A stretch of DNA of 64,000 nucleotides from positions 4,500 through 68,499 of the forward strand of contig JBEKCH010000006.1 of NCBI GenBank assembly GCA_050014975.1, in the 5' to 3' direction. Origin of the DNA: Candidatus Limnocylindrales bacterium (lineage in GTDB: Bacteria > Chloroflexota > Limnocylindria > Limnocylindrales > CSP1-4). Made by a program: the position numbers and the translations under genes. Each line of letters begins with the position of its first letter. Position 1 is the first letter of the stretch. Shown here piece after piece: positions 36,315 to 51,677 of the stretch. The notes under the pieces were generated by a model that saw only the letters and a program-made list of their open reading frames with translations, was not told the DNA's origin and searched no databases.

Positions 36315-36426
36315 CCCATCCGGGGACGGGACCCGGGGACCTCGGGTCTACGCGTCCACTTGGGCTGCCTGGCCTGGCAAAGCACTCGAAGGGCACGCGG
36401 CCAGGCCAGCGTGGCCGCACCAAGAA

Positions 36427-36454
36427 GGAACGGCGCCCTTGCGGGCGCCGTTCC
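36427..36454 (-). terminator. strong hairpin between convergent ispG and the minus-strand surface-protein gene
   Basis: Perfect 12-bp stem GGAACGGCGCCC / GGGCGCCGTTCC with loop TTGC. Read on the minus strand it is followed by TTCTTGG, 25 nt after the minus-gene stop. On the plus strand there is no U-tract. Confidence 0.6.
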
Positions 36455-36479
36455 GGATGGCCGTGGTTGGGGCGTCGGG

Positions 36480-37118
36480 CTAACGACGGCCGAGGCCGTA
36501 GCGACGCATGGTCATAAAGGCCGCGGCCGCGGCGAGACCCGCAAAGACCAGGAGGATCCCCGGAGCGCCCCCGGCATTATTGGCGGGAACGGTGCCAGTC
36601 GGCGGAGGCGTGGAACTCACGGTCGGAGACGGCGTGGGCGCCGTCGACGTCTCGACGTACGTGTTGAACGCGAAGTCGAAGGCGCCCAGGTTCGCGCTGT
36701 CCCAGGCCGAGTAGATGTTCCTGTCGTAGGCAGCGCCGGCCGGGGAGAGGTCGTTGGTGGCTCCGTCGAACGTGTAGGCGCTCGACCAGGGCATCATCAG
36801 GGCGTAGACCGTCCCTGCCGTCACCGAGTAGGGCGAGCTGAACACGAAGTCGTTGAACCCGCCCGAGGTCGAGCATGTCGCCGTCGTCTGGGTGAGGATG
36901 TCCATCGGCATCTTCGTATTCGAGTTCGTGTCGGTGAGGTAGACGGTGATGGAGGCGTTCGACGTGCTGGTGCAGACGAGCTGGACGCGGTCCAGCGGAC
37001 CGCTCAGGCCGGCGGTGAAAGTCTGGGCCCAGTAGGTGCGGCCGTTGTCGACGTTGTTCGCGGGGTCCGGCACGGCGATGTTGGCGACGGTCTGCGACTG
37101 GTCGAGCGTGTCGGGCAC
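36480..37118 (-). CDS. secreted/cell-surface protein (mature part) with a C-terminal sorting-signal-like tail; apparently frameshifted from its signal peptide
   Basis: 212-aa ORF, Thr/Ser/Asn/Asp-rich beta-type domain. Pro/Thr linker TAPTPSPTVSSTPPPTG, then hydrophobic helix GILLVFAGLAAAAAF and basic tail MRRYGLGRR. No signal peptide in this frame (see 37119..37194). One of only two minus-strand genes, the other being pncB at the right edge. Confidence 0.7.
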   Translation of the reverse strand: MPDTLDQSQTVANIAVPDPANNVDNGRTYWAQTFTAGLSGPLDRVQLVCTSTSNASITVYLTDTNSNTKMPMDILTQTTATCSTSGGFNDFVFSSPYSVTAGTVYALMMPWSSAYTFDGATNDLSPAGAAYDRNIYSAWDSANLGAFDFAFNTYVETSTAPTPSPTVSSTPPPTGTVPANNAGGAPGILLVFAGLAAAAAFMTMRRYGLGRR

Positions 37119-37194
37119 CGCGGCGGCCCGCGGCGGTGCCCGACAGAAATGCGAGCAGCAGGACGGGTACGACGAATACCACCGAGCGTCTCAT
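37119..37194 (-). pseudogene. orphan start codon plus signal peptide, out of frame with the downstream surface-protein ORF
   Basis: On the minus strand AGGAGGG-N3-ATG (ATG = 37194..37192) opens MRRSVVFVVPVLLLAFLSGTAAG, then runs into Arg-rich nonsense. Removing one G from the GGG run at 37127..37129 would read [16 protein letters not shown]... and join it in frame to the 36480..37118 ORF. Confidence 0.6.
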
Positions 37195-37399
37195 GAGCCC
37201 TCCTACAGGCCGAGACACGAAGGGACCGACAGGCGCCCCGGCCGCATGAATGAGTGATCGCGGTAGTCCCACAGCGGGACCGGGGGCCTGTCAATCAGTT
37301 CGCAGACGTTCTGTGCGCCGGGCCGCGTAACGTCGTCGGCCGCAGCAGTTAGGATTCGGGGCCATAGCAGCGCCAGCCAGATCCCGGAGGAGGAGCAGC

Positions 37400-38857: not shown

Positions 38858-38902
38858 TCGGGCCGCTGCCGCCGGTCCCGGTCGCTCACTGGAGGGACTC
38901 GC

Positions 38903-39415
38903 GTGACCTCTGCTTCGGCAAACCCACCCGGCAAGCCGCGCCATCCGTGGGGCTTGCCGCAGCGCGAGACGCCGCAGCCCGAGGCACCGGAGCCCGCCTG
39001 GCCACTGCCGTCGGGGCCGCAGCCGAGATTGCCGCCCCCGGGATCGGGATCCGAGCCGGATCGGCCGCCCCTGTTCTCGCACCGGAATGGCTGCCTGCTG
39101 GTCTCCCTGATCATGCTCGGCCTGATCTCCCTCCTGTTCGTGAGCTGCATCGCCGTCCTTCACCCGCTGCTCCAGGTGGAGGACAAGCTGAAGTCGGACC
39201 TGGGGACTCGCGCCACGAACGTCGACGTCGTCTCGGTGAATGGGGCGAGCACATTCGTGGTGCATCTGGCACCCGGGCATGACTCGGAAGGGCCGGATGT
39301 AGCCTGCCGCATAGTCGAGCCCGACCTGCAGGCGAACGGGTTGGCGGCCGCGCATTTCGAGGTGGTCGACAGCGCCGGCCACGTGGTCGCAGACAACTCC
39401 ACGCCGTGTGGCTGA
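38903..39415 (+). CDS. hypothetical Pro-rich single-pass membrane protein
   Basis: 170 aa. GTG start behind a GGAGGG SD. Pro-rich N-terminus, TM CLLVSLIMLGLISLLFVSCIAVL, about 85-aa C-terminal domain with two Cys. No recognisable family. Confidence 0.62.
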   Translation: MTSASANPPGKPRHPWGLPQRETPQPEAPEPAWPLPSGPQPRLPPPGSGSEPDRPPLFSHRNGCLLVSLIMLGLISLLFVSCIAVLHPLLQVEDKLKSDLGTRATNVDVVSVNGASTFVVHLAPGHDSEGPDVACRIVEPDLQANGLAAAHFEVVDSAGHVVADNSTPCG

Positions 39416-43100: not shown

Positions 43101-43637
43101 ATGAGCCAGCGAACCGAACGCATCGACGAGCTTCTCCGCCAGGAGATCGGCCGAGCGCTGGAGCGTGAGCTGGCGGATCCGGGAATCGGCTTCGTCACCG
43201 TGACCGATGTCGAGACGAGCGCGGATCTTGCGCACGCGCGCGTCTGGGTCAGCGTCATCGGGTCCGAGGAGCAGCGCCGGGAAACGCTGGCAGCCCTGCG
43301 TCGGGCAATGCCCTACGTGCGGCACAGCCTCAACTCCAAGATTCGGTTGCGCCGCATCCCCGAGCTGGACGTCCGGCTCGACGATTCGGTCGAGCGCGGG
43401 ACGCGCGTGCTCCACCTGCTCAACGAGCTGGAGGCCGGGCGCGACCCGGACGCTGCCGCGGCCCCGCTGGAGTCGCTGCCGACGCCGGTTCCACGTCTGC
43501 CGCACGAGGGAGACGCGCCCGATCTGGAGGTCCCGCGGCCGCCGTCGCCCGGCGGAAGGCCACGGCCGAGGAAGCGGACGGGCTCGAAGCCCGGCGCGAA
43601 GACGGCCCGAGGCAGCGCCCGCCGGAGCTCACGATGA
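43101..43637 (+). CDS. rbfA: ribosome-binding factor A
   Basis: 178 aa. RTERIDELLRQEIGRAL, VTVTDVETSADLAHARVWVS. Pro/Arg-rich C-terminal extension of about 60 aa. Confidence 0.9.
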   Translation: MSQRTERIDELLRQEIGRALERELADPGIGFVTVTDVETSADLAHARVWVSVIGSEEQRRETLAALRRAMPYVRHSLNSKIRLRRIPELDVRLDDSVERGTRVLHLLNELEAGRDPDAAAAPLESLPTPVPRLPHEGDAPDLEVPRPPSPGGRPRPRKRTGSKPGAKTARGSARRSSR

Positions 43638-44671
43638 ACCCCGATCCGAGGGTCGATCTCTCCGCTTACGCGGCTGCGGTCCCGGACGAGGTCATCGGGC
43701 GACTGAGGGCGGGGCGGCGGGTTCTCACGATCTGCCACGAGAATCCGGAGGCGGACGCGCTGGGCTCGGCGCTGGCCATCGCCCTCCTTGTCGAAGCGGG
43801 TGGGGGAGTGGCCACGCCTGTGTGCGCGGATCCGATGCCGGCGATGTACGACTTCCTGCCGGGCATGGACCGATTCCGCCAGGGGCCGGCTCCGGAGATC
43901 GCCTACGACCTGCTGGTCGTGGGGGATTGCGGCGAGCTGGAGCGGATCGGGCCGGTGCTTGATTCGCACCGCGACCTGTTCGAGCGCGTGCCCATACTCG
44001 ACATCGATCACCACGTGTCCAACCGGCATTTTGGTGCCTTCGACTGGGTGGACCCGCACAGCTCCGCCACGTGCGAGATGGTGACACTGCTGGCCTGGCG
44101 AATGGGCGTTCCCCTCACGGCCGCCGACGGGATGCTGGCCACGGCTCTGGCAGCGGGCGTGGTCATGGACACCGGCAACTTCCAGCACCCCAACACGACG
44201 CCGCGGACTCTGGTCGTGGCCGCGGCGTTGCGCGAGGCGGGGGCGCCGCTCAGCGAGATCGCCCGCCGGGTGTACCGCACCAAGCCCAATAGCCAGCTCA
44301 TTCTCTTCGGCCGCGTGCTCTCGCGTCTCGAGTCGGACTGCGACGGCCGGCTCGTCTGGTCCACGCTGGAACAGGCCGATCTGGCCGCGGCCGGTGCCAG
44401 CTCGGCGGAGTCCGAGGGCCTGATCGACATGCTCGCCCAGGCTCGGGACGCCCAAGTGGCGGTGCTCTTCAAGGGGGAGGGCGAGGTCACACGGATCAGC
44501 GTTCGCACGCGCGAGGGCGTGGACGCGACGGTCCTGACGCGTACGTTCGGTGGGGGTGGTCACGCTCGCGCCGCGGGAGCCAGCGTCTATCTACCGCGGT
44601 GGGAGGCACGCCGCATGGTGCTGGCCCGAGCCGCGGAGCTCATCGAGGCGAACGGACCGATCCCGGGATGA
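43634..44671 (+). CDS. nrnA: DHH/DHHA1 phosphoesterase (NrnA/CnpB-like nanoRNase / pAp phosphatase)
   Basis: 345 aa. DHH motifs ICHENPEADALGSALA, LLVVGDCG, LDIDHHVSN. DHHA1 motif GGGGHARAAG. Same slot as the DHH gene after rbfA in actinobacteria. Confidence 0.86.
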   Translation: MNPDPRVDLSAYAAAVPDEVIGRLRAGRRVLTICHENPEADALGSALAIALLVEAGGGVATPVCADPMPAMYDFLPGMDRFRQGPAPEIAYDLLVVGDCGELERIGPVLDSHRDLFERVPILDIDHHVSNRHFGAFDWVDPHSSATCEMVTLLAWRMGVPLTAADGMLATALAAGVVMDTGNFQHPNTTPRTLVVAAALREAGAPLSEIARRVYRTKPNSQLILFGRVLSRLESDCDGRLVWSTLEQADLAAAGASSAESEGLIDMLAQARDAQVAVLFKGEGEVTRISVRTREGVDATVLTRTFGGGGHARAAGASVYLPRWEARRMVLARAAELIEANGPIPG

Positions 44672-46509
44672 GTGCCTCGGGCCGCGCCACCGAGCGGGGC
44701 ATCGACGGCATCCTGGTACTGTCGAAGCCGTCCGGGCCCACGTCGCACGATATGGTGGGTCTGGTCCGGCGACTCAGCGGCACACGACGAGTCGGGCACG
44801 GTGGGACGCTCGATCCGTTCGCCGCGGGTGTGCTGCCGGTCTTCCTCGGTCTGGCGACGCGTGTGGTCGAGTACCACATGGGCGACGACAAGGCCTACCG
44901 CGCCACGGTCTGCTTCGGCGCAAGGTCCGCCACCGATGATCGCGACGGCGAGCTCGTTCCGAGCGGCCGTCCGGGGCCCACGCGCGAGCTCGTCGAGCAG
45001 GCGCTGGCCGCCTTCTGCGGCTCGATCGAGCAACGGCCGCCGGCGTTCAGCGCCATCAAGGTCGGTGGCCGGCGCGCCTACCAGCTCGCCCGCCAGGGGG
45101 TGGCGCCGGAGCTCGCTCCCCGCACCGTGAAGATCAACCGGCTCGAGCTCGTGGAGTGGGACGGCTCATACCCGGAGCGGCCTGCGGCCGTGCTGGAGGT
45201 GGAGTGCGGCGCCGGCACCTACATTCGCTCGCTTGCCCGCGACCTCGGTGAGCAGCTGGGGTGCGGCGCCTACCTGGGCGCGCTGACTCGCACCCGAAGC
45301 GGCCCCTTCCCACTGGAGACCGCCCACGATCTCGATGCCGTGCGCGCCGCGGCCGCCGCCGGGCCGTCGTTCCTGGCGGCCCTGACGCTCCCCATCGATG
45401 CGGGCCTGGAGGGGCTGCCCATCGCCCCTCTGACAAGCGATGAAGTCATCGCCGCCGCCCGCGGCCAGCAGGTTCGGCCGGCGCAGCGCCCTCACCTGGA
45501 GCAGGGCGCCACGGTCAGGCTCACCGACCCGGGCGAAAGCCTCGTGGGCATCGGGTCGTGGCGAGCGGGCCGGATCGTGCCCCAGAAGATGTTCGTGCCG
45601 CCCCTGCCCGCTCAGGGAGGCGGCGCAGGCGAGGCCGTCGCGGCGGTGGAGGGCGGCGAGCACGTGGAGCCGCCGCTCTGGTACGCCCGCGCCGGCGTTC
45701 CACACGAGGTCGTGCCCGGGGTGGACGCGCTGCGTCGCGAGACGGGCCGGCTGTACGTTGCCATCGGCGTCTTCGACGGTCTGCATCGCGGGCACCTGTA
45801 CTTGCTTCGGGAACTGCGCCACGCTGCGGCGCGGGCGGCCGCCCGGCCGGCCGTCATCACATTCGACGCCCACCCCGAGGAGGTCGTCGCCGGCCTGGCT
45901 CCGGCGTTGCTGTGCGATCCAGACGAGCGGCTGGTGCGACTGGCGGCCGCGGGGGCGGAGGTGACCGTGGTCCAGCACTTCGATCACTCGCTCCGTATGA
46001 CCAGCTACGGGGACTTCGTGGAACGTATTCGAAGCCACGTGGAGCTGGCCGGATTCGTCATGACCCCGGATGCCGCCTTCGGCCGCGACCGCCGGGGCAC
46101 GCCGGAGGCCCTGACGCAGCTGGGGAAGGAGGCCGGCTTCGAGGTCACGGTCGTTCACTCGCTGCTGCTCGACGGCGAACAGGTTCGCAGCTCGGAGATC
46201 CGAAGGCGGATCGTGGCCGGGGATCTGGCAGCGGCACGGCGGATGCTCGGCCGGCCGCTGTCGGTCACCGGTACTGTCGTGGCCGAGCCGCGCCCTCTCC
46301 AGGCGGCGCAGCTTCGCTTCGAGGTTCCAGTCGTCCTTCCGCCACCGGGTCGCTACGCGGTCATGATCGGGCCGCCGTGGCAGACCGGTTCACCGGCTGC
46401 CCGTGCCGATCGAGCCAGCGCCGCGGTCGTGGACGAGGGGGGTCTGTGGTTGGAGGACATCCTCGGCGGCGAGCAGCCGGATCGCCTGAGGGTCGTTTTC
46501 GTCGATTGA
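44668..46509 (+). CDS. truB: tRNA pseudouridine-55 synthase TruB fused in frame to a RibF-like FAD synthetase
   Basis: Start at ATG 44668 (ATGA overlap with nrnA). 613 aa with no stop between halves. TruB half: GILVLSKPSGPTSHD, GHGGTLDPFAAGVLPV, PPAFSAIKVGGRRAY, PUA-like end. RibF half: VAIGVFDGLHRGHLYL, VITFDAHPEE. The last 110 aa or so lack the riboflavin-kinase G-x-x-x-GR-x-LGFPTAN block. Confidence 0.88.
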   Translation: MSASGRATERGIDGILVLSKPSGPTSHDMVGLVRRLSGTRRVGHGGTLDPFAAGVLPVFLGLATRVVEYHMGDDKAYRATVCFGARSATDDRDGELVPSGRPGPTRELVEQALAAFCGSIEQRPPAFSAIKVGGRRAYQLARQGVAPELAPRTVKINRLELVEWDGSYPERPAAVLEVECGAGTYIRSLARDLGEQLGCGAYLGALTRTRSGPFPLETAHDLDAVRAAAAAGPSFLAALTLPIDAGLEGLPIAPLTSDEVIAAARGQQVRPAQRPHLEQGATVRLTDPGESLVGIGSWRAGRIVPQKMFVPPLPAQGGGAGEAVAAVEGGEHVEPPLWYARAGVPHEVVPGVDALRRETGRLYVAIGVFDGLHRGHLYLLRELRHAAARAAARPAVITFDAHPEEVVAGLAPALLCDPDERLVRLAAAGAEVTVVQHFDHSLRMTSYGDFVERIRSHVELAGFVMTPDAAFGRDRRGTPEALTQLGKEAGFEVTVVHSLLLDGEQVRSSEIRRRIVAGDLAAARRMLGRPLSVTGTVVAEPRPLQAAQLRFEVPVVLPPPGRYAVMIGPPWQTGSPAARADRASAAVVDEGGLWLEDILGGEQPDRLRVVFVD

Positions 46510-46622: not shown

Positions 46623-46892
46623 GTGCCGCTCGCGCGGGAAGCGAAGGAACAGGTGATCTCGGATTACGCCGTACACGACGGCGACACTGGCTCCGCAGAG
46701 GTGCAGATCGCGCTCCTCACCGAAAGGATCAAGGAGCTCACGGAGCACCTGCGAAGCTTTCCGAAGGACAACCAGTCCCGCCGCGGCCTCCTCAAGCTCG
46801 TCGGACAGCGGCGGCGCCTTCTTGCCTACCTGATCAAGAAGGACAACGCTCGCTATCGCGCCGTCATCGCACGGCTCGGACTGCGCCGCTAA
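46623..46892 (+). CDS. rpsO: 30S ribosomal protein S15
   Basis: 89 aa. [50 protein letters not shown] upstream. Confidence 0.96.
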
Positions 46893-47009: not shown

Positions 47010-49598
47010 GTGTCTCAGACATTCGAGACGCAGTTCGCAGGACGCACACTCAGCATCGAAACCGGCAAGATGGCCATGCTCGCGGGCGGTGCCGTCACGG
47101 TCCGCTTCGGCGACACCATGGTGCTGGGCACCGCAAACCGGGCCGATCCGCGGCCCGGCCTCGACTTCTTCCCGCTCACGGTCGAATTCGAGGAGCGCAT
47201 GTACGCCGCCGGCAAGATCCCGGGCGGCTTCATCAAGCGCGAATCCCGACCTTCGGAGCAGGCCATTCTGGCCTGCCGCCTGACCGACCGGCCGATCCGG
47301 CCGCTCTTCCCGGAGGGCTACAAGGATGACGTCCAGATCGTGATCACGGTCCTATCCACGGACCAGGAGAATCAGCCCGACGTCCTTGGCACGTTCGCCG
47401 CTTCATGCGCGCTGACCATCAGCGAGATCCCATTCCTCGGCCCGATCGGCGCCGTTCGGATAGGCCGCATCGACGGCGAGTTCGTGGTCAACCCCACCAT
47501 CGGCGATCTCGAGCGCTCGGATCTGGACCTCGTCGTCTCGGGTACGCGCGACGCGATCATGATGGTCGAGGCCGGCGCTTCGATCCTTCCCGAGGACGTG
47601 ATGGCCGAGGCCATTCTCTTCGGTCACCGCGCGCTCCAGCCTCTCATCGACATCCAGGAGGAGATGCGCGCCGCCGTCGGCAAGCCCAAGACGATCGGCT
47701 ACCTCGAGCCGGGGACGAGCTCCGTACTCGAATTCGTGAAGAAGGTTCGGGAGCGTGGCTCCGAGTTCGTGGTCGTCGACGTCGAGACGACCGGCCGCGA
47801 GCCGAAGATGGCCGACCTGATCGAGATCGGCGCCGTTCGCGTTCGCGACGGCGAGATCGTCGATCGCTTCTCCACCTTCGTGAACCCAGGGCGCGCGATC
47901 TTGGGCGCCCAGATGCACGGCATCAGCGATGCGGACGTGGCCGGCGCCCCGGCCCCGCGCGACGCTGCCCTGCGCTTCCTGGAGTTCGCCGGGACGACCA
48001 GCCTAGTCGGCCACAACGTCGGCTTCGACCTGGGGTTCATCGAGCACGCGCTCGGTGAGCCGGGCAGGTTCGCCGAGGCCAGCTACTTCGACACCCTCGC
48101 CATCGCCCGGGAAGGCTACCCGGACCTGGAGTCGTTCAAGCTCGGCGACGTGGCCCGGTTCTTCGGCTTGACGATCGAGACGGCTCATCGCGGCCTGGCC
48201 GATGCCGAGACCACGGCCGCCGTGCTAGCTCAATTCGCGCGGGACCTGCCGCCGCGAATCGAGCTGCTGGAAGATGCCATCGCCGTGTCCATCAGGGCAA
48301 ATCGCCAGGACGGCCAGGACCCGGCGGCGCTCCTGGACGCCGCGCGCCGCCAGGCCCGCATCAGCAAGAGCCTCTTCGGGCTCGTCCAGAAGAACACCGT
48401 CCGCAAGCTGATCCTCGACGAAGGCATCCGCATGGACGGCCGGGGCGTCGACGAGATCCGCCCGATCTCGGTCGAGGTCGGCGTACTGCCGCGGGCCCAC
48501 GGATCCGGCCTGTTCACCCGCGGCCAGACCCAGGCCCTCACGGTGGCAACGCTGGGCCCGGCCTCGGATGTCCAGCGCATCGACACGATCAGCCCCGAGA
48601 CCGAGAAGCGGTTCCTCCACCACTACAACATGCCGCCCTATAGCACCGGCGAGAACAAGCCGATGCGCGGGCCCGGCCGGCGCGAGATCGGCCACGGCCA
48701 CCTCGCCGAGCGGGCCCTCCTGCCGGTCCTGCCGTCGGAGGAAGAGTTCCCCTACGTGATCCGACTCGTGAGCGAGTGCGTGACCTCGAACGGCTCCACC
48801 TCGATGGCCTCGACCTGTGGCTCGAGCCTGGCGCTGATGGATGCCGGCGTGCCGATCAAGGCCGCCGTCGCCGGTGCCGCGATGGGCCTGATCAGCGAGC
48901 CGGACGGCCGCTTCGTCGTCCTGACCGACATCCTGGGCAAGGAAGATGCCTTCGGCGACATGGACTTCAAGGTCACCGGCACCCGTGAAGGCGTCACGGC
49001 CCTGCAGATGGACATCAAGGTCATGGGCATCAGCGAGGCGATCATTCGCCAGGGCCTGCAGAAGGCCCATGCGGCTCGGATGGCCATCCTGGACAAGATG
49101 GATGCCGTCATCCCGTCCAGCCGCACGGAGATGAGCAGCTTCGCGCCGCGCATCATCACCATCAAGATCAACCCCGAGAAGATCCGCGACATCATCGGCA
49201 AGGGTGGCTCCGTCATCCGCAAGATCCAGGAGGAAACCAGCACCGAGATCAACGTCGAGGACGACGGCACCGTGCAGATCGCCGCCGTGTCGGGCGAGAG
49301 CTCGCGCAAGGCCGTCCAGTGGATCGAGTCGCTGACACGCGACGTGGAAGTCGGCGGCCTGTACCTGGGCAAGGTCACCCGGATCATGGGCTTCGGGTGC
49401 TTCGTCGAGATCCTGCCCGGCAAGGAAGGGCTGGTTCGGATCGGCGAACTGGCCGACTATCACGTGCCCACGGTGGAAGACGTGGTTTCGGTCGGTGACG
49501 AGGTAATGGTGGTCGTGACCGAGATCGACCGCCAGGGCCGAATCAATCTCTCCCGCAAGGCGGCCATGCAGCGGCACCTGGCCAAGACGCAGGTCTGA
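47010..49598 (+). CDS. pnp: polynucleotide phosphorylase carrying an internal DEDDh exonuclease domain
   Basis: 862 aa. PH core 1 (GRTLSIETGKMAMLAGGAV, PLTVEFEERMYAAGKIPGGFIKRE), PH core 2 (IRMDGRGVDEIRPI, GSGLFTRGQTQAL, DILGKEDAFGDMDFKVTGT), KH (GKGGSVIRKIQEET), S1 (GGLYLGKVTRIMGFGCFVEILPGKEGLV). About 160 extra residues sit between the cores. Confidence 0.97.
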   Translation: MSQTFETQFAGRTLSIETGKMAMLAGGAVTVRFGDTMVLGTANRADPRPGLDFFPLTVEFEERMYAAGKIPGGFIKRESRPSEQAILACRLTDRPIRPLFPEGYKDDVQIVITVLSTDQENQPDVLGTFAASCALTISEIPFLGPIGAVRIGRIDGEFVVNPTIGDLERSDLDLVVSGTRDAIMMVEAGASILPEDVMAEAILFGHRALQPLIDIQEEMRAAVGKPKTIGYLEPGTSSVLEFVKKVRERGSEFVVVDVETTGREPKMADLIEIGAVRVRDGEIVDRFSTFVNPGRAILGAQMHGISDADVAGAPAPRDAALRFLEFAGTTSLVGHNVGFDLGFIEHALGEPGRFAEASYFDTLAIAREGYPDLESFKLGDVARFFGLTIETAHRGLADAETTAAVLAQFARDLPPRIELLEDAIAVSIRANRQDGQDPAALLDAARRQARISKSLFGLVQKNTVRKLILDEGIRMDGRGVDEIRPISVEVGVLPRAHGSGLFTRGQTQALTVATLGPASDVQRIDTISPETEKRFLHHYNMPPYSTGENKPMRGPGRREIGHGHLAERALLPVLPSEEEFPYVIRLVSECVTSNGSTSMASTCGSSLALMDAGVPIKAAVAGAAMGLISEPDGRFVVLTDILGKEDAFGDMDFKVTGTREGVTALQMDIKVMGISEAIIRQGLQKAHAARMAILDKMDAVIPSSRTEMSSFAPRIITIKINPEKIRDIIGKGGSVIRKIQEETSTEINVEDDGTVQIAAVSGESSRKAVQWIESLTRDVEVGGLYLGKVTRIMGFGCFVEILPGKEGLVRIGELADYHVPTVEDVVSVGDEVMVVVTEIDRQGRINLSRKAAMQRHLAKTQV
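47766..48248 (+). other. DnaQ/PolC-like DEDDh 3'-5' exonuclease domain inserted in the alpha-helical linker of PNPase
   Basis: aa 253-413 of pnp. Exo I FVVVDVETTG (D257, E259), Exo II GHNVGFDLGFI (D340), Exo III HRGLADAE (H393-x4-D398). The flanking sequence is PNPase on both sides and in the same frame. Confidence 0.85.
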
Positions 49599-49776: not shown

Positions 49777-50850
49777 ATGTCCCGAGAAGCCCAATTACTG
49801 ACCGTCGCAGTCGTTGGAGCCACGGGCGTCGTTGGACGCACGATGATCCAGGTCCTGTCCGAGCGAAGGTTCCCGGTCGGCGAGCTGCGGCTGCTGGCTT
49901 CCGGCCGATCCGCCGGCACGACGGTCAGCGCCGATGGGCGGACTCTCACCGTGGAGGAGGCGACTCCCGACGCTTTCGAGGGCGTAGACATAGCGCTCTT
50001 CTCGGCCGGGACGGACGTCTCCAGGCAGCTGGTTCCCGCAGCCGCGGCCCGCGGAGCCACGGTCATCGACAACTCCAATGCCTGGCGAATGGACCCCGCA
50101 GTGCCCCTCATCGTCAGCCAGGTCAACCCGGGCGACGGGGAGTGGCACGAGGGGATCGTCGCCAACCCGAACTGCTCGACGATGCAGCTCATGCCCGTGC
50201 TGATGGCCCTGCGCGACACCGTCGGGCTGGAGCGTGTCATCGTAGACACGTATCAGTCCGTGTCCGGCACGGGAGCGGAGGCGCTCGCCGAGCTGGAGAA
50301 TCAGATCCGCGCTCATGTCGCGGGCGAGGCCAAGGTGGCGTCGGTGTATCCGCACCCGATCGCCTTCAACGCGCTTCCGGAGATCGACGTCTTCCTGGAC
50401 AACGGCTACACCCGCGAGGAGTGGAAGGTCGTGACGGAGAGCCGCAAGATCCTTCACCTGCCGGAACTGCGCATCTCCTGCACTGCCGTCCGCGTGCCGG
50501 TCTTCGTCGGCCACTCGGAGGCGGTGCACGTGGAGACGACCAGGCCGATGACGCCGCAAGAGGCTCGCAATGCCTTTGCCGCCGTCCCCGGCGTCGTGGT
50601 CGTCGACGATCCCGAAAACCACGTCTATCCGATCGCAACTCAGGCCGCCGGCTCGGACGAGGTCTACGTCGGGCGGGTGCGAACCGATCCATCGGTCGAG
50701 CGCGGGCTCGCCTTCTGGGTCGTCAGCGACAACCTGCGCAAGGGCGCGGCCACAAACGCCGTCCAGATCGCGGAGGCGCTGCTCGAGCGCGGTTGGGTCG
50801 AGGCCCGCTCACGGCGGGCGGTCCCCAGCGGGACCGGGGAAGCCTCGTGA
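49777..50850 (+). CDS. asd: aspartate-semialdehyde dehydrogenase
   Basis: 357 aa. VAVVGATGVVGRTM, active-site NPNCSTMQL, SVSGTG, VSDNLRKGAATNAVQIAE. Confidence 0.96.
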   Translation: MSREAQLLTVAVVGATGVVGRTMIQVLSERRFPVGELRLLASGRSAGTTVSADGRTLTVEEATPDAFEGVDIALFSAGTDVSRQLVPAAAARGATVIDNSNAWRMDPAVPLIVSQVNPGDGEWHEGIVANPNCSTMQLMPVLMALRDTVGLERVIVDTYQSVSGTGAEALAELENQIRAHVAGEAKVASVYPHPIAFNALPEIDVFLDNGYTREEWKVVTESRKILHLPELRISCTAVRVPVFVGHSEAVHVETTRPMTPQEARNAFAAVPGVVVVDDPENHVYPIATQAAGSDEVYVGRVRTDPSVERGLAFWVVSDNLRKGAATNAVQIAEALLERGWVEARSRRAVPSGTGEAS

Positions 50851-51677
50851 CGGACGCCGAGCGCCAGGCGGCGCTCGATGCCATAGCGGCGGAGGTGGCG
50901 GCGTGCACGCGCTGCCGCCTGCACCAGGGTCGGACACGGGCGGTGCCGGGGGAGGGGACCGCCGGCACGGAGGTCATCTTCGTGGGCGAAGGGCCCGGGT
51001 TCAATGAAGACCGGCAGGGCCGGCCGTTCGTGGGTCAGGCTGGCTCGCTCCTGGACGAGTTGCTCGCCTCGGTCCTCTGGTCGCGCGGTGAGGTCTTCAT
51101 CACCAACGTGGTCAAATGCCGCCCGCCGGGCAACCGCGATCCCGAGCCGGACGAGATCACGGCCTGCGCGCTGTATCTGACGCGCCAGCTGGAGGCGCTC
51201 GACCCGGCGCTCGTCGTGACGCTGGGCCGCTTCTCCATGGCCCGCTTCAGCCCCGGGGCACGTATCGGGCAGGTTCATGGAACCTTCCAGCCCGCCAGCG
51301 CCGCATCCGGAGCCCCACGGGCGCTCACGTTCGCGATGTATCACCCCGCCGCCGCGCTGCACCAGGGTTCGCTCAAGCAGGCCCTCTTCGACGACATGCA
51401 GGGCGTCCCGAGGGCTCTCACGCAGGCGCGAGCCCTGCGAGCAGCCGCCGGACCGGCCCCCGTGCCGCCGGCCGGGCAGCCGACCGTCCCGTTTGCCCCC
51501 GCTCCGCCGGCGAACGAAGCATCGGCCGAGGCCGGCTCGTCACAGGTCGCAGCCGCTGCCGAGGGCGAGCTACCTCAGGCTGCCGAGAACGTGCTCCCGG
51601 CACCTTCGGGGCCAGCCGAGACGGCCGCCCCAGCCGGCGCCGAATTCGACCCTGCGGCTCAGCTCGGCCTCTTCTAG
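50847..51677 (+). CDS. uracil-DNA glycosylase, family 4 (Fe-S type)
   Basis: Start placed at GTG 50847 (GTGA overlap with the asd stop). CTRCRLHQGRT, VIFVGEGPGFNEDRQGRPFVGQAG, ITNVVKCRPPGNRDP, HPAAAL. Ala/Pro-rich tail of about 75 aa. Confidence 0.9.
   Translation: MTDAERQAALDAIAAEVAACTRCRLHQGRTRAVPGEGTAGTEVIFVGEGPGFNEDRQGRPFVGQAGSLLDELLASVLWSRGEVFITNVVKCRPPGNRDPEPDEITACALYLTRQLEALDPALVVTLGRFSMARFSPGARIGQVHGTFQPASAASGAPRALTFAMYHPAAALHQGSLKQALFDDMQGVPRALTQARALRAAAGPAPVPPAGQPTVPFAPAPPANEASAEAGSSQVAAAAEGELPQAAENVLPAPSGPAETAAPAGAEFDPAAQLGLF

Follow-up and report, generated by a model that had tools for sequence, protein, structure and literature searches.

A DEDDh exonuclease domain nested in the polynucleotide phosphorylase of Candidatus Limnocylindria: a conserved and apparently undescribed architecture

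Can a bacterial polynucleotide phosphorylase (PNPase) house a complete second 3' exonuclease within its own chain? The five-domain plan of this enzyme is regarded as common to all PNPases, from those of bacteria to that of human mitochondria, and PNPase is among the most thoroughly studied ribonucleases (RNases). The question is raised by the pnp gene in a stretch of 64,000 nucleotides from a Candidatus Limnocylindrales bacterium (assembly GCA_050014975.1, contig JBEKCH010000006.1, positions 4,500 to 68,499), hereafter called the window. A first-pass annotation of the window had recognized a DEDDh 3'-5' exonuclease domain inside an otherwise intact PNPase. This reading is borne out by profile scores, motif order, predicted fold, 239 homologues, and independent assemblies. 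The nested PNPase is a real, conserved, and apparently undescribed architecture made from two well-known parts.

The gene is a single open reading frame (ORF) of 862 amino acids with a GTG start and with neither stop nor frameshift, as originally described, and the peptide strings quoted at that time were all found in place: FVVVDVETTG at residues 253-262, GHNVGFDLGFI at 334-344, and HRGLADAETTA at 393-403. The proposed insertion, nucleotides 47766..48248, corresponds exactly to residues 253-413, referred to below as the insert; the coordinates of the other features are given in Table 1. The Pfam search suggested with the annotation detected two copies each of RNase_PH and RNase_PH_C, together with KH_1 and S1, and placed RNase_T (PF00929) between the PH halves. 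Against a gathering score of 24, PF00929 reaches 98 bits (E 1e-27) at residues 254-406 of the whole protein and 103 bits (E 3.3e-29) on the excised insert. The host scores 949.6 bits with the PNPase equivalog model TIGR03591 of NCBIfam (cut-off 525) and 945.9 bits with NF008805 (cut-off 471), and thus belongs to the PNPase family. The insert breaks the TIGR03591 match into two stretches, the second of which covers residues 446-851 and profile positions 283-688. By Pfam, the order of domains is that of PNPase (first RNase PH core, PH1; alpha-helical linker; second core, PH2; KH; S1), with the linker interrupted, and the match of the linker family PF03726 is limited to residues 449-478 (profile positions 51-80 of 81). 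The RNA-binding motif RLTDRPIRP lies at residues 90-98 in the first core, and the PH2 motifs GRREIGHG, NGSTSMAS, and DAFGDMDFK are found at 556, 594, and 646. It is known from established PNPase structures that the latter form the active site and the former belongs to the RNA path. Within the insert, Exo I (D-x-E), the Exo II aspartate, and Exo III (H-x4-D) follow each other in the order of the DEDD nucleases; since Exo III has histidine, not tyrosine, the insert is of the DEDDh and not of the DEDDy type.

The borders of the insert are sharply defined by comparison with the solved PNPase of Anabaena (8zaw). In a phmmer alignment, residues 8-241 correspond to positions 22-254 of that chain and residues 394-851 to positions 258-714, so that about 152 residues stand in place of a 3-residue connection, with the Exo III helix aligned onto a native linker helix of 8zaw. 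Subtraction of the 161-residue insert leaves 701 amino acids, an ordinary PNPase length, in agreement with the earlier estimate. No Hint/splicing or homing endonuclease family was found by Pfam in the protein, and the insert does not qualify as an intein. Composition along the window shows no GC break across the insert, and its borders carry no repeats beyond chance matches; therefore the insertion appears to be old.

The same architecture recurs in hundreds of independent sequences. A search of a library of 5.8 billion proteins retrieved at least 120 clusters with 87-100% identity to the window PNPase, all of them with PF00929 and the PNPase domains and, except for one of 842 amino acids, 859-864 amino acids long. 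Their sources are ENA, JGI, NCBI, and Logan assemblies, in many cases with contigs of 0.1-2 Mb, and several are labelled 'Candidatus Limnocylindrales bacterium' by NCBI. When the insert with both junctions was used as a HMMER query against 1.84 billion representatives, 43 matches were obtained at E <= 1e-30; the top ones were fragments of nested PNPases, and one (P0125) was a full-length divergent member of 864 amino acids, 51% identical to the window PNPase in the insert-plus-junction region. This protein, used as a query in its turn, retrieved at least 120 further clusters, every one with the nested domain, among them the freshwater 'Candidatus Limnocylindrus sp.', which is about 69% identical overall to the window PNPase. 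Overall, the architecture is present in at least 240 clusters of 858-871 amino acids, apart from partial sequences of 729 and 842 amino acids. These figures refer to the best 120 clusters of each cluster search and the best 150 representatives, and the loci from GTDB described next are a lower bound.

A scan of GTDB (one genome per species), based on alignment of the junction query only, identified at least 20 loci with 49-70% identity; 18 of the 20 span the whole query, and in the other two the contig ends inside the gene. Below them identity drops abruptly to 33-45%, in unrelated proteins from other phyla whose matches centre on the exonuclease domain, none extending to the 3' junction. The gene is intact with all three Exo motifs in 19 of the 20 loci, and in a long-read metagenome-assembled genome (L019, 8001-8770) a frameshift breaks the entire pnp frame. 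Every listed homologue and each of the 20 matching GTDB genomes carries the insert, and an independent ENA contig (L081) encodes a PNPase identical to that of the window. The doubt about a chimeric assembly that accompanied the first-pass annotation is answered by this recurrence, and by the identical contig, which together rule a chimera out.

All 20 loci show adjacency of rpsO and pnp, and the gene order nusA-infB-rbfA-DHH-truB-ribF-rpsO-pnp-asd-RNase J-FtsK is common to those with enough flanking sequence. Because this pairing and order are conserved, the nested pnp appears to be the housekeeping copy. Limnocylindrales belong to the class Candidatus Limnocylindria of the phylum Chloroflexota (NCBI taxonomy), and, among the branches sampled, those from freshwater and those from soil alike have nested PNPases. 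Three loci labelled Patescibacteria, Verrucomicrobiia, and Polarisedimenticolia (L012, L015, and L018, respectively) also carry a nested pnp with within-family identities; we set aside an occurrence in other phyla, since the Limnocylindrales gene order and the similar identities indicate that these short contigs are probably mis-binned. Two further contigs (L009 and L016) have the same gene order under Anaerolineaceae/Anaerolinea labels, i.e., in another class of the same phylum, and are probably mis-binned or mislabelled. Thus, as far as these searches reach, the architecture appears to be confined to one Chloroflexota class among the matches listed. It had been left undecided whether this arrangement was already catalogued: it is widespread within that class and not unique to this genome, and full-text literature searches found no published description of a PNPase with a nested exonuclease.

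Two kinds of candidate variants were considered and rejected. Matches of 675-830 amino acids with the exonuclease in mid-protein, among the best 150 representatives, which could have been independent PNPase-DEDDh fusions, proved to be PolC fragments, a FAN1/VRR-NUC fusion, and a BRCT fusion. Five entries with a partial RNase_T match, and thus possible decayed inserts (P0122, P0145, P0155, P0196, and P0235), are frameshifted, with Arg/Pro-rich out-of-frame stretches throughout the gene; as the frameshifts in these five and in L019 break the whole frame of the essential pnp, sequencing error fits better than decay. Such entries mimic divergent or decayed variants in searches. Naming of the nested PNPases (P0004-P0120, P0289-P0389) is a problem of another kind. 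Automated annotation recognizes the two parts, but the majority bear the JGI name 'DNA polymerase III epsilon subunit family exonuclease' and NCBI uses plainly 'polyribonucleotide nucleotidyltransferase', so that each database name conceals one enzymatic half.

Is the nested domain likely to be active? We aligned 239 full-length homologues with 68-100% identity to the window PNPase. The first-pass annotation had stated that all catalytic residues are present, and indeed none of D257, E259, D340, H393, and D398 varies in any of the 239 sequences; N336 in Exo II is replaced by serine in 32. The host motifs RLTDRPIRP, GRREIGHG, NGSTSMAS, and DAFGDMDFK are invariant or nearly so. Only 20 of the 161 insert columns (12%) are invariant, compared with 46-53% in the PH cores (46% for the first core), and all five catalytic residues are among these 20 (hypergeometric P 1.8e-5). 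T260, G262, Q301, H303, F339, F343, and D361, typical neighbours of the motifs in the DEDDh superfamily, are invariant as well, and the insert is nearly free of insertions and deletions. In pairs of proteins with less than 75% overall identity, the mean identity is 54% in the insert and 51-54% in the flanking linker helices versus 75-84% in PH1, PH2, and S1. The nonsynonymous distance (dN, Nei-Gojobori) between the window and the closest genome (L001) is 0.23 in the insert and 0.014-0.034 in the PH cores; only relative dN values are used here, as the synonymous distance (dS) is about 0.6-0.8 at every divergence and is thus saturated, with GC content at third codon positions near 0.89, which makes their ratio omega unusable. 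The insert has diverged in step with its host across the freshwater and soil clades. We read the conservation pattern as that expected where selection maintains catalysis in a domain whose other positions are loosely constrained, and, judging from sequence, the nested domain is very likely a working exonuclease.

The position of the insert among the DEDDh enzymes was assessed by profiles, sequence matches, and predicted structure. The best NCBIfam models, with NF005906 at the top, are those of the PRK07883-type DEDD exonuclease (148 bits), DinG (126-129), and PolC (123-123.9). All of them score far below the whole-protein cut-offs of these models (789 for DinG and 873 for PolC), and no polymerase, PHP, OB, or helicase Pfam domains were found in the PNPase, which is therefore neither a PolC nor a DinG. 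The epsilon equivalogs TIGR01406 (70.6-74.8 bits versus a cut-off of 222.7) and NF004316 (62-67 versus 196) are not reached, and the generic domain model TIGR00573 just is (71.9-75.1 versus 71.5); being internal to PNPase and, by Pfam, without the C-terminal tail of epsilon, the insert is not DnaQ proper. Among the 25 best of its 30 NCBIfam models, none is for Orn or RNase T. Sequence matches in PDB are led by PolC (9qpc, E 8e-23) and the Thermotoga PolC exonuclease (2p1j, E 1.5e-21), and include S. aureus DinG (8zef, E 2e-15), Cas2-DEDDh, and epsilon. Among the representatives listed, the nearest free-standing relatives are DinG-type proteins of 935-967 amino acids, including Alicyclobacillus DinG with 47% identity, and proteins of 560-590 amino acids named 'epsilon family exonuclease'. 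The DinG-type and PRK07883-type relatives are 45-49% identical to the insert, at least as close as PolC. Since all three groups fall within 38-49% identity, no specific donor can be named. In particular, a lost neighbouring polC as the source of the domain is without support beyond the membership of PolC in the same broad clade. The remark of the first-pass annotation that polC is absent before nusA is true (the order being rseP-ispG-unknown ORF-proS-185-aa ORF-nusA), but it carries no evidential weight because the location of polC before nusA is a Firmicutes feature.

The insert and its flanking residues were modelled by AlphaFold2 with a predicted local distance difference test (pLDDT) of 90.1 and a predicted template-modelling score (pTM) of 0.87, and the insert is predicted to adopt the RNase H-like alpha/beta fold. 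In a Foldseek search with this model, the top match is DinG (8zef, E 6e-12); PolC superimposes at 2.6 A over 167 columns with 33% identity; the PolC exonuclease and the free-standing DnaQ and epsilon domains (the latter two at about 0.8) are found at target-normalised template-modelling scores (TMt) of 0.75-0.82, and Exo X is also present. RNase T structures appear only from rank 17, with E about 5e-7, a distance that carries no information on the substrate of the insert. By its sequence, the insert belongs to the DEDDh superfamily; it is not an epsilon, PolC, or DinG, and probably neither an Orn nor an RNase T.

How the graft sits in the host can be described from the predicted models. Helices 210-223 and 237-247 are followed by a four-residue turn, the first exonuclease strand at 252-260, and the rest of the alpha/beta domain. 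On the other side, one predicted helix runs from the Exo III motif into the linker (395-430 in the full-length model, 395-432 in the model of the insert plus flanks), and in the full-length model helices 438-449 and 453-471 then lead to PH2. The short connections at both ends, together with the pTM of 0.87, suggest joint movement of the exonuclease and the linker helices, and since the Exo III helix passes without a break into a linker helix, they are predicted to form one rigid module. The full-length AlphaFold2 model (pLDDT 72.6, pTM 0.68) is strong for residues 240-480 (85-95), with S1 and some of the PH loops modelled weakly; used whole in Foldseek, it matches PNPases only, down to E 4e-54. 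The helical domain of E. coli PNPase is located across the torus from S1/KH, where it forms part of the lining of a pore. This pore offers another way to the active site, presumably for nucleoside diphosphates (NDPs) and phosphate, and the helical domain also influences activity (PMC2723993). By analogy, the Limnocylindria enzyme would be a trimer with three DEDDh domains crowning the side of the ring away from the KH/S1 portal of RNA entry, beside the side pores to the phosphorolytic sites.

Taking these observations together, the protein is most likely, to judge from its motifs, a dual-mode 3' exonuclease, phosphorolytic and hydrolytic. In the scheme that we propose, a DEDDh domain was inserted long ago into the loop of the alpha-helical linker between the RNase PH cores and was then kept. 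RNA caught by KH and S1 would be threaded through the channel and phosphorolysed to NDPs, and the DEDDh sites would carry out metal-dependent, phosphate-independent hydrolysis of single-stranded 3' ends to nucleoside monophosphates (NMPs). The entire proposition, an ancient DEDDh graft in the housekeeping PNPase of Limnocylindria, retained since and giving a dual-mode enzyme, seems to us on the whole probable. PNPase leaves a short oligonucleotide (PMC11572968). We tentatively favour, as the role of the domain, phosphate-independent hydrolysis of single-stranded 3' ends, chiefly of such limit oligonucleotides and of short-tailed RNAs that the channel-fed phosphorolytic site is unable to finish. 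This clean-up would couple reversible, phosphate-dependent decay to an irreversible hydrolytic step. Doubtful, in our estimate, is the further idea of a self-contained 'bacterial exosome', in which channel-fed phosphorolysis would be finished or bypassed by the DEDDh crown at the pore face. If true, it would free 3' RNA decay from phosphate supply, might replace separate RNase II/R and Orn in small-genome oligotrophs, and would let one polypeptide toggle between energy-conserving, NDP-yielding and irreversible, NMP-yielding decay.

Several observations weigh against the scheme. The full-length model is of moderate confidence, and the location suggested for the DEDDh site with respect to the pore is borrowed from E. 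coli PNPase. The insert evolves fast compared with the PH cores, and its function is thus less constrained than core catalysis. A DHH/DHHA1 gene resembling nrnA lies four genes upstream, so that clean-up of nanoRNA may already be covered; its match to the NrnA model is weak (76 bits versus a cut-off of 350), and its position is kept in related loci. The proposal, made with the annotation, that the nested domain finishes nanoRNAs keeps some standing, weakened by the presence of this gene in the same operon. Moreover, the closest characterized relatives (PolC, DinG, epsilon, Exo X, and Cas2-DEDDh) are mainly DNA exonucleases, and B. subtilis DinG does not cut single-stranded RNA in Mg2+ (PMC12525004).

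The last two points lead to the alternative that survives best, although we consider it rather unlikely: that the domain acts on DNA or RNA-DNA hybrids and not on free RNA, trimming 3' DNA ends or removing R-loops in a DinG-like manner. The strongest sequence and fold matches (PolC with the E values given above, DinG, Cas2-DEDDh, epsilon, Exo X), the best NCBIfam models (PRK07883, DinG, PolC), and the place of Alicyclobacillus DinG among the closest free-standing relatives all agree with it. Likewise, a connection of PNPase with DNA repair has been made in B. subtilis and in mycobacteria. On the other hand, the host PNPase is an RNA enzyme, and its KH and S1 domains and its operon are dedicated to RNA as well. 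The neighbouring genes have no specific link to repair, and the uracil-DNA glycosylase gene two genes downstream is absent from that place in most related loci. B. subtilis DinG degrades single-stranded DNA and the RNA strand of hybrids, and requires Mn2+ for single-stranded RNA (PMC12525004), which speaks for DNA or hybrid substrates; the DinG exonuclease of S. aureus degrades single-stranded RNA too, as cited in the same source (PMC12525004), so that this DEDDh clade is not strictly DNA-specific. Sugar specificity of DEDDh enzymes is not readable from sequence.

Far less probable is a catalytically silent domain, serving as a structural or regulatory module that gates the pore for NDPs and phosphate or docks a partner. 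Some DEDD-like domains have become scaffolds, and the insert changes as fast as the linker around it (about 54% identity, compared with 75-82% in the PH cores). It is rigidly fused to the linker helices in the models, and the corresponding domain of E. coli PNPase affects activity and lines the pore (PMC2723993). However, the five metal-binding and water-activating residues are invariant in all 239 homologues while 88% of the insert columns vary, and a scaffold role would not need the additional invariance of T260, G262, Q301, H303, F339, F343, and D361. Finally, that the architecture is an artefact (a chimera or wrong gene call) or a recent mobile, selfish, or horizontal insertion has a negligible chance: the source organism is uncultured and several relatives are frameshifted (P0122, P0145, P0155, P0196, P0235, L019), but hundreds of independent contigs, 19 intact species-representative genomes, and the identical contig L081 carry it, and the insert has no composition break, flanking repeats, or Hint/intein match and has diverged together with its host in both freshwater and soil clades.

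Returning to the dual-mode PNPase that we prefer, its parts have clear precedents. Canonical PNPases (those of E. coli, C. crescentus, S. antibioticus, and Anabaena; 3gcm, 4am3, 1e3p, 8zaw) share the domain order, the catalytic and RNA-binding motifs, and the rpsO-pnp operon with the Limnocylindria enzyme, which differs from them in about 152-161 extra residues that make up a complete second nuclease at a short linker loop; no solved PNPase with such an insert was found among the PDB matches from phmmer and Foldseek. The exonuclease of PolC, the replicative polymerase of Gram-positive bacteria, belongs to the same DEDDh clade and is likewise nested, inside the PHP domain; this clade has therefore been placed inside another enzyme before, although the host of PolC is a DNA polymerase and the host here is an RNase. 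The closest free-standing relatives, DinG of Bacillota (S. aureus, B. subtilis; 8zef) and the PRK07883-type proteins, have the exonuclease at the N-terminus, paired with a helicase or a GIY-YIG nuclease, whereas its partner in the Limnocylindria protein is a phosphorolytic RNase, inside which it lies. Orn and RNase T, both free-standing dimers, share the superfamily and the catalytic motif with the insert, yet are not close to it. Orn finishes the short oligonucleotides left by PNPase (PMC9779919), the role that we tentatively prefer for the insert.

The resemblance to the eukaryotic exosome, drawn in the first-pass annotation by way of Rrp6, holds in part. Both systems combine a PH ring with a hydrolytic 3'-5' exonuclease, an analogy in principle between assemblies that are not homologous. 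The exosome ring is catalytically dead, and Rrp44, an RNase II-type enzyme, and Rrp6 are separate subunits; in Limnocylindria, the PH ring is active as judged by its motifs, and the DEDDh nuclease is in the same chain. The likeness to Rrp6 itself has to be adjusted, since Rrp6 is of the DEDDy type and is located at the S1/KH cap, and the position suggested for the insert, opposite S1/KH, would resemble that of Rrp44 more closely.

Table 1. Features of the nested pnp gene and its upstream neighbours (positions in the window)
Feature	Position	Strand	Evidence
DHH/DHHA1 phosphoesterase, NrnA-like, between rbfA and truB	43634..44671	+	Pfam DHH and DHHA1
rpsO (ribosomal protein S15), 89 aa, canonical upstream partner of pnp	46623..46892	+	Ribosomal_S15 in the L081 gene call
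pnp coding sequence with nested DEDDh exonuclease	47010..49598, including stop codon	+	TIGR03591; identical protein on ENA contig L081
First RNase PH core (PH1 and RNase_PH_C), aa 1-209	47010..47636	+	Pfam; RNase_PH_C at aa 144-208
Alpha-helical linker before the insert, aa 210-252	47637..47765	+	AlphaFold2 helices 210-223 and 237-247; 8zaw alignment
Nested DEDDh 3'-5' exonuclease domain, aa 253-413	47766..48248	+	PF00929, 2p1j, AlphaFold2/Foldseek
Exo I motif D-V-E, D257 and E259	47778..47786	+	invariant, 239/239
Exo II D340 in GHNVGFD	48027..48029	+	invariant, 239/239
Exo III H393-x4-D398	48186..48203	+	both residues invariant, 239/239
Alpha-helical linker after the insert, aa 414-481	48249..48452	+	AlphaFold2 helices; PF03726 at aa 449-478
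Second RNase PH core (PH2, phosphorolytic site), aa 482-705	48453..49124	+	Pfam, motifs
KH domain, aa 716-773	49155..49328	+	PF00013, E 3.8e-11
S1 domain, aa 780-850	49347..49559	+	PF00575, E 2.4e-16

Other features of the neighbourhood were observed on the way. The genes truB and ribF are fused in an ORF of 636 amino acids (44599..46509, + strand), with TruB_N/TruB_C_2 at residues 57-270 and FAD_syn at 382-532; no riboflavin-kinase domain was found in the fusion, and RibF was detected by its FAD-synthetase half alone. The fusion is common only to the window, the closest genome (L001), and the ENA contig L081; truB and ribF are separate genes, read in different frames, in 11 other Limnocylindrales loci. 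On either side of proS there is an ORF with good coding statistics, one of 278 amino acids in the gap between ispG and proS (36360..37196, + strand) and one of 185 amino acids (38858..39415, + strand) in the usual place of rimP ahead of nusA; neither of them matched a Pfam or NCBIfam family. The order dxr-rseP-ispG-...-proS-...-nusA is a conserved Terrabacteria string without polC. Downstream, a maximal ORF of 511 amino acids (50142..51677, + strand) overlaps asd and has a family-4 uracil-DNA glycosylase domain at residues 269-414. In the L081 gene call this gene starts much later, with a 4-nucleotide overlap with asd, and the Arg-rich N-terminal part of the ORF is probably not translated; its C-terminal approximately 100 residues are an Ala/Pro-rich low-complexity tail. 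No Rfam family reached its gathering score in the 64 kb, including the rpsO-pnp leader and the surroundings of ffh, ftsY, and further translation genes.

The nested PNPase is of interest for both the bacteria that carry it and the enzyme family. The architecture would surprise specialists in RNA decay, while the underlying chemistry is familiar. The helical linker of PNPase, a poorly understood part of the enzyme, seems to tolerate a whole extra enzyme and, by analogy with E. coli PNPase, could position it beside the pore to the active site. A second, chemically different 3' exonuclease domain appears to have been built into PNPase throughout a whole class of bacteria, which are uncultured and abundant in soil and freshwater. 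If this domain is active, it would provide a natural single-chain model for the coupling of phosphorolytic and hydrolytic decay, for which the exosome uses separate subunits.

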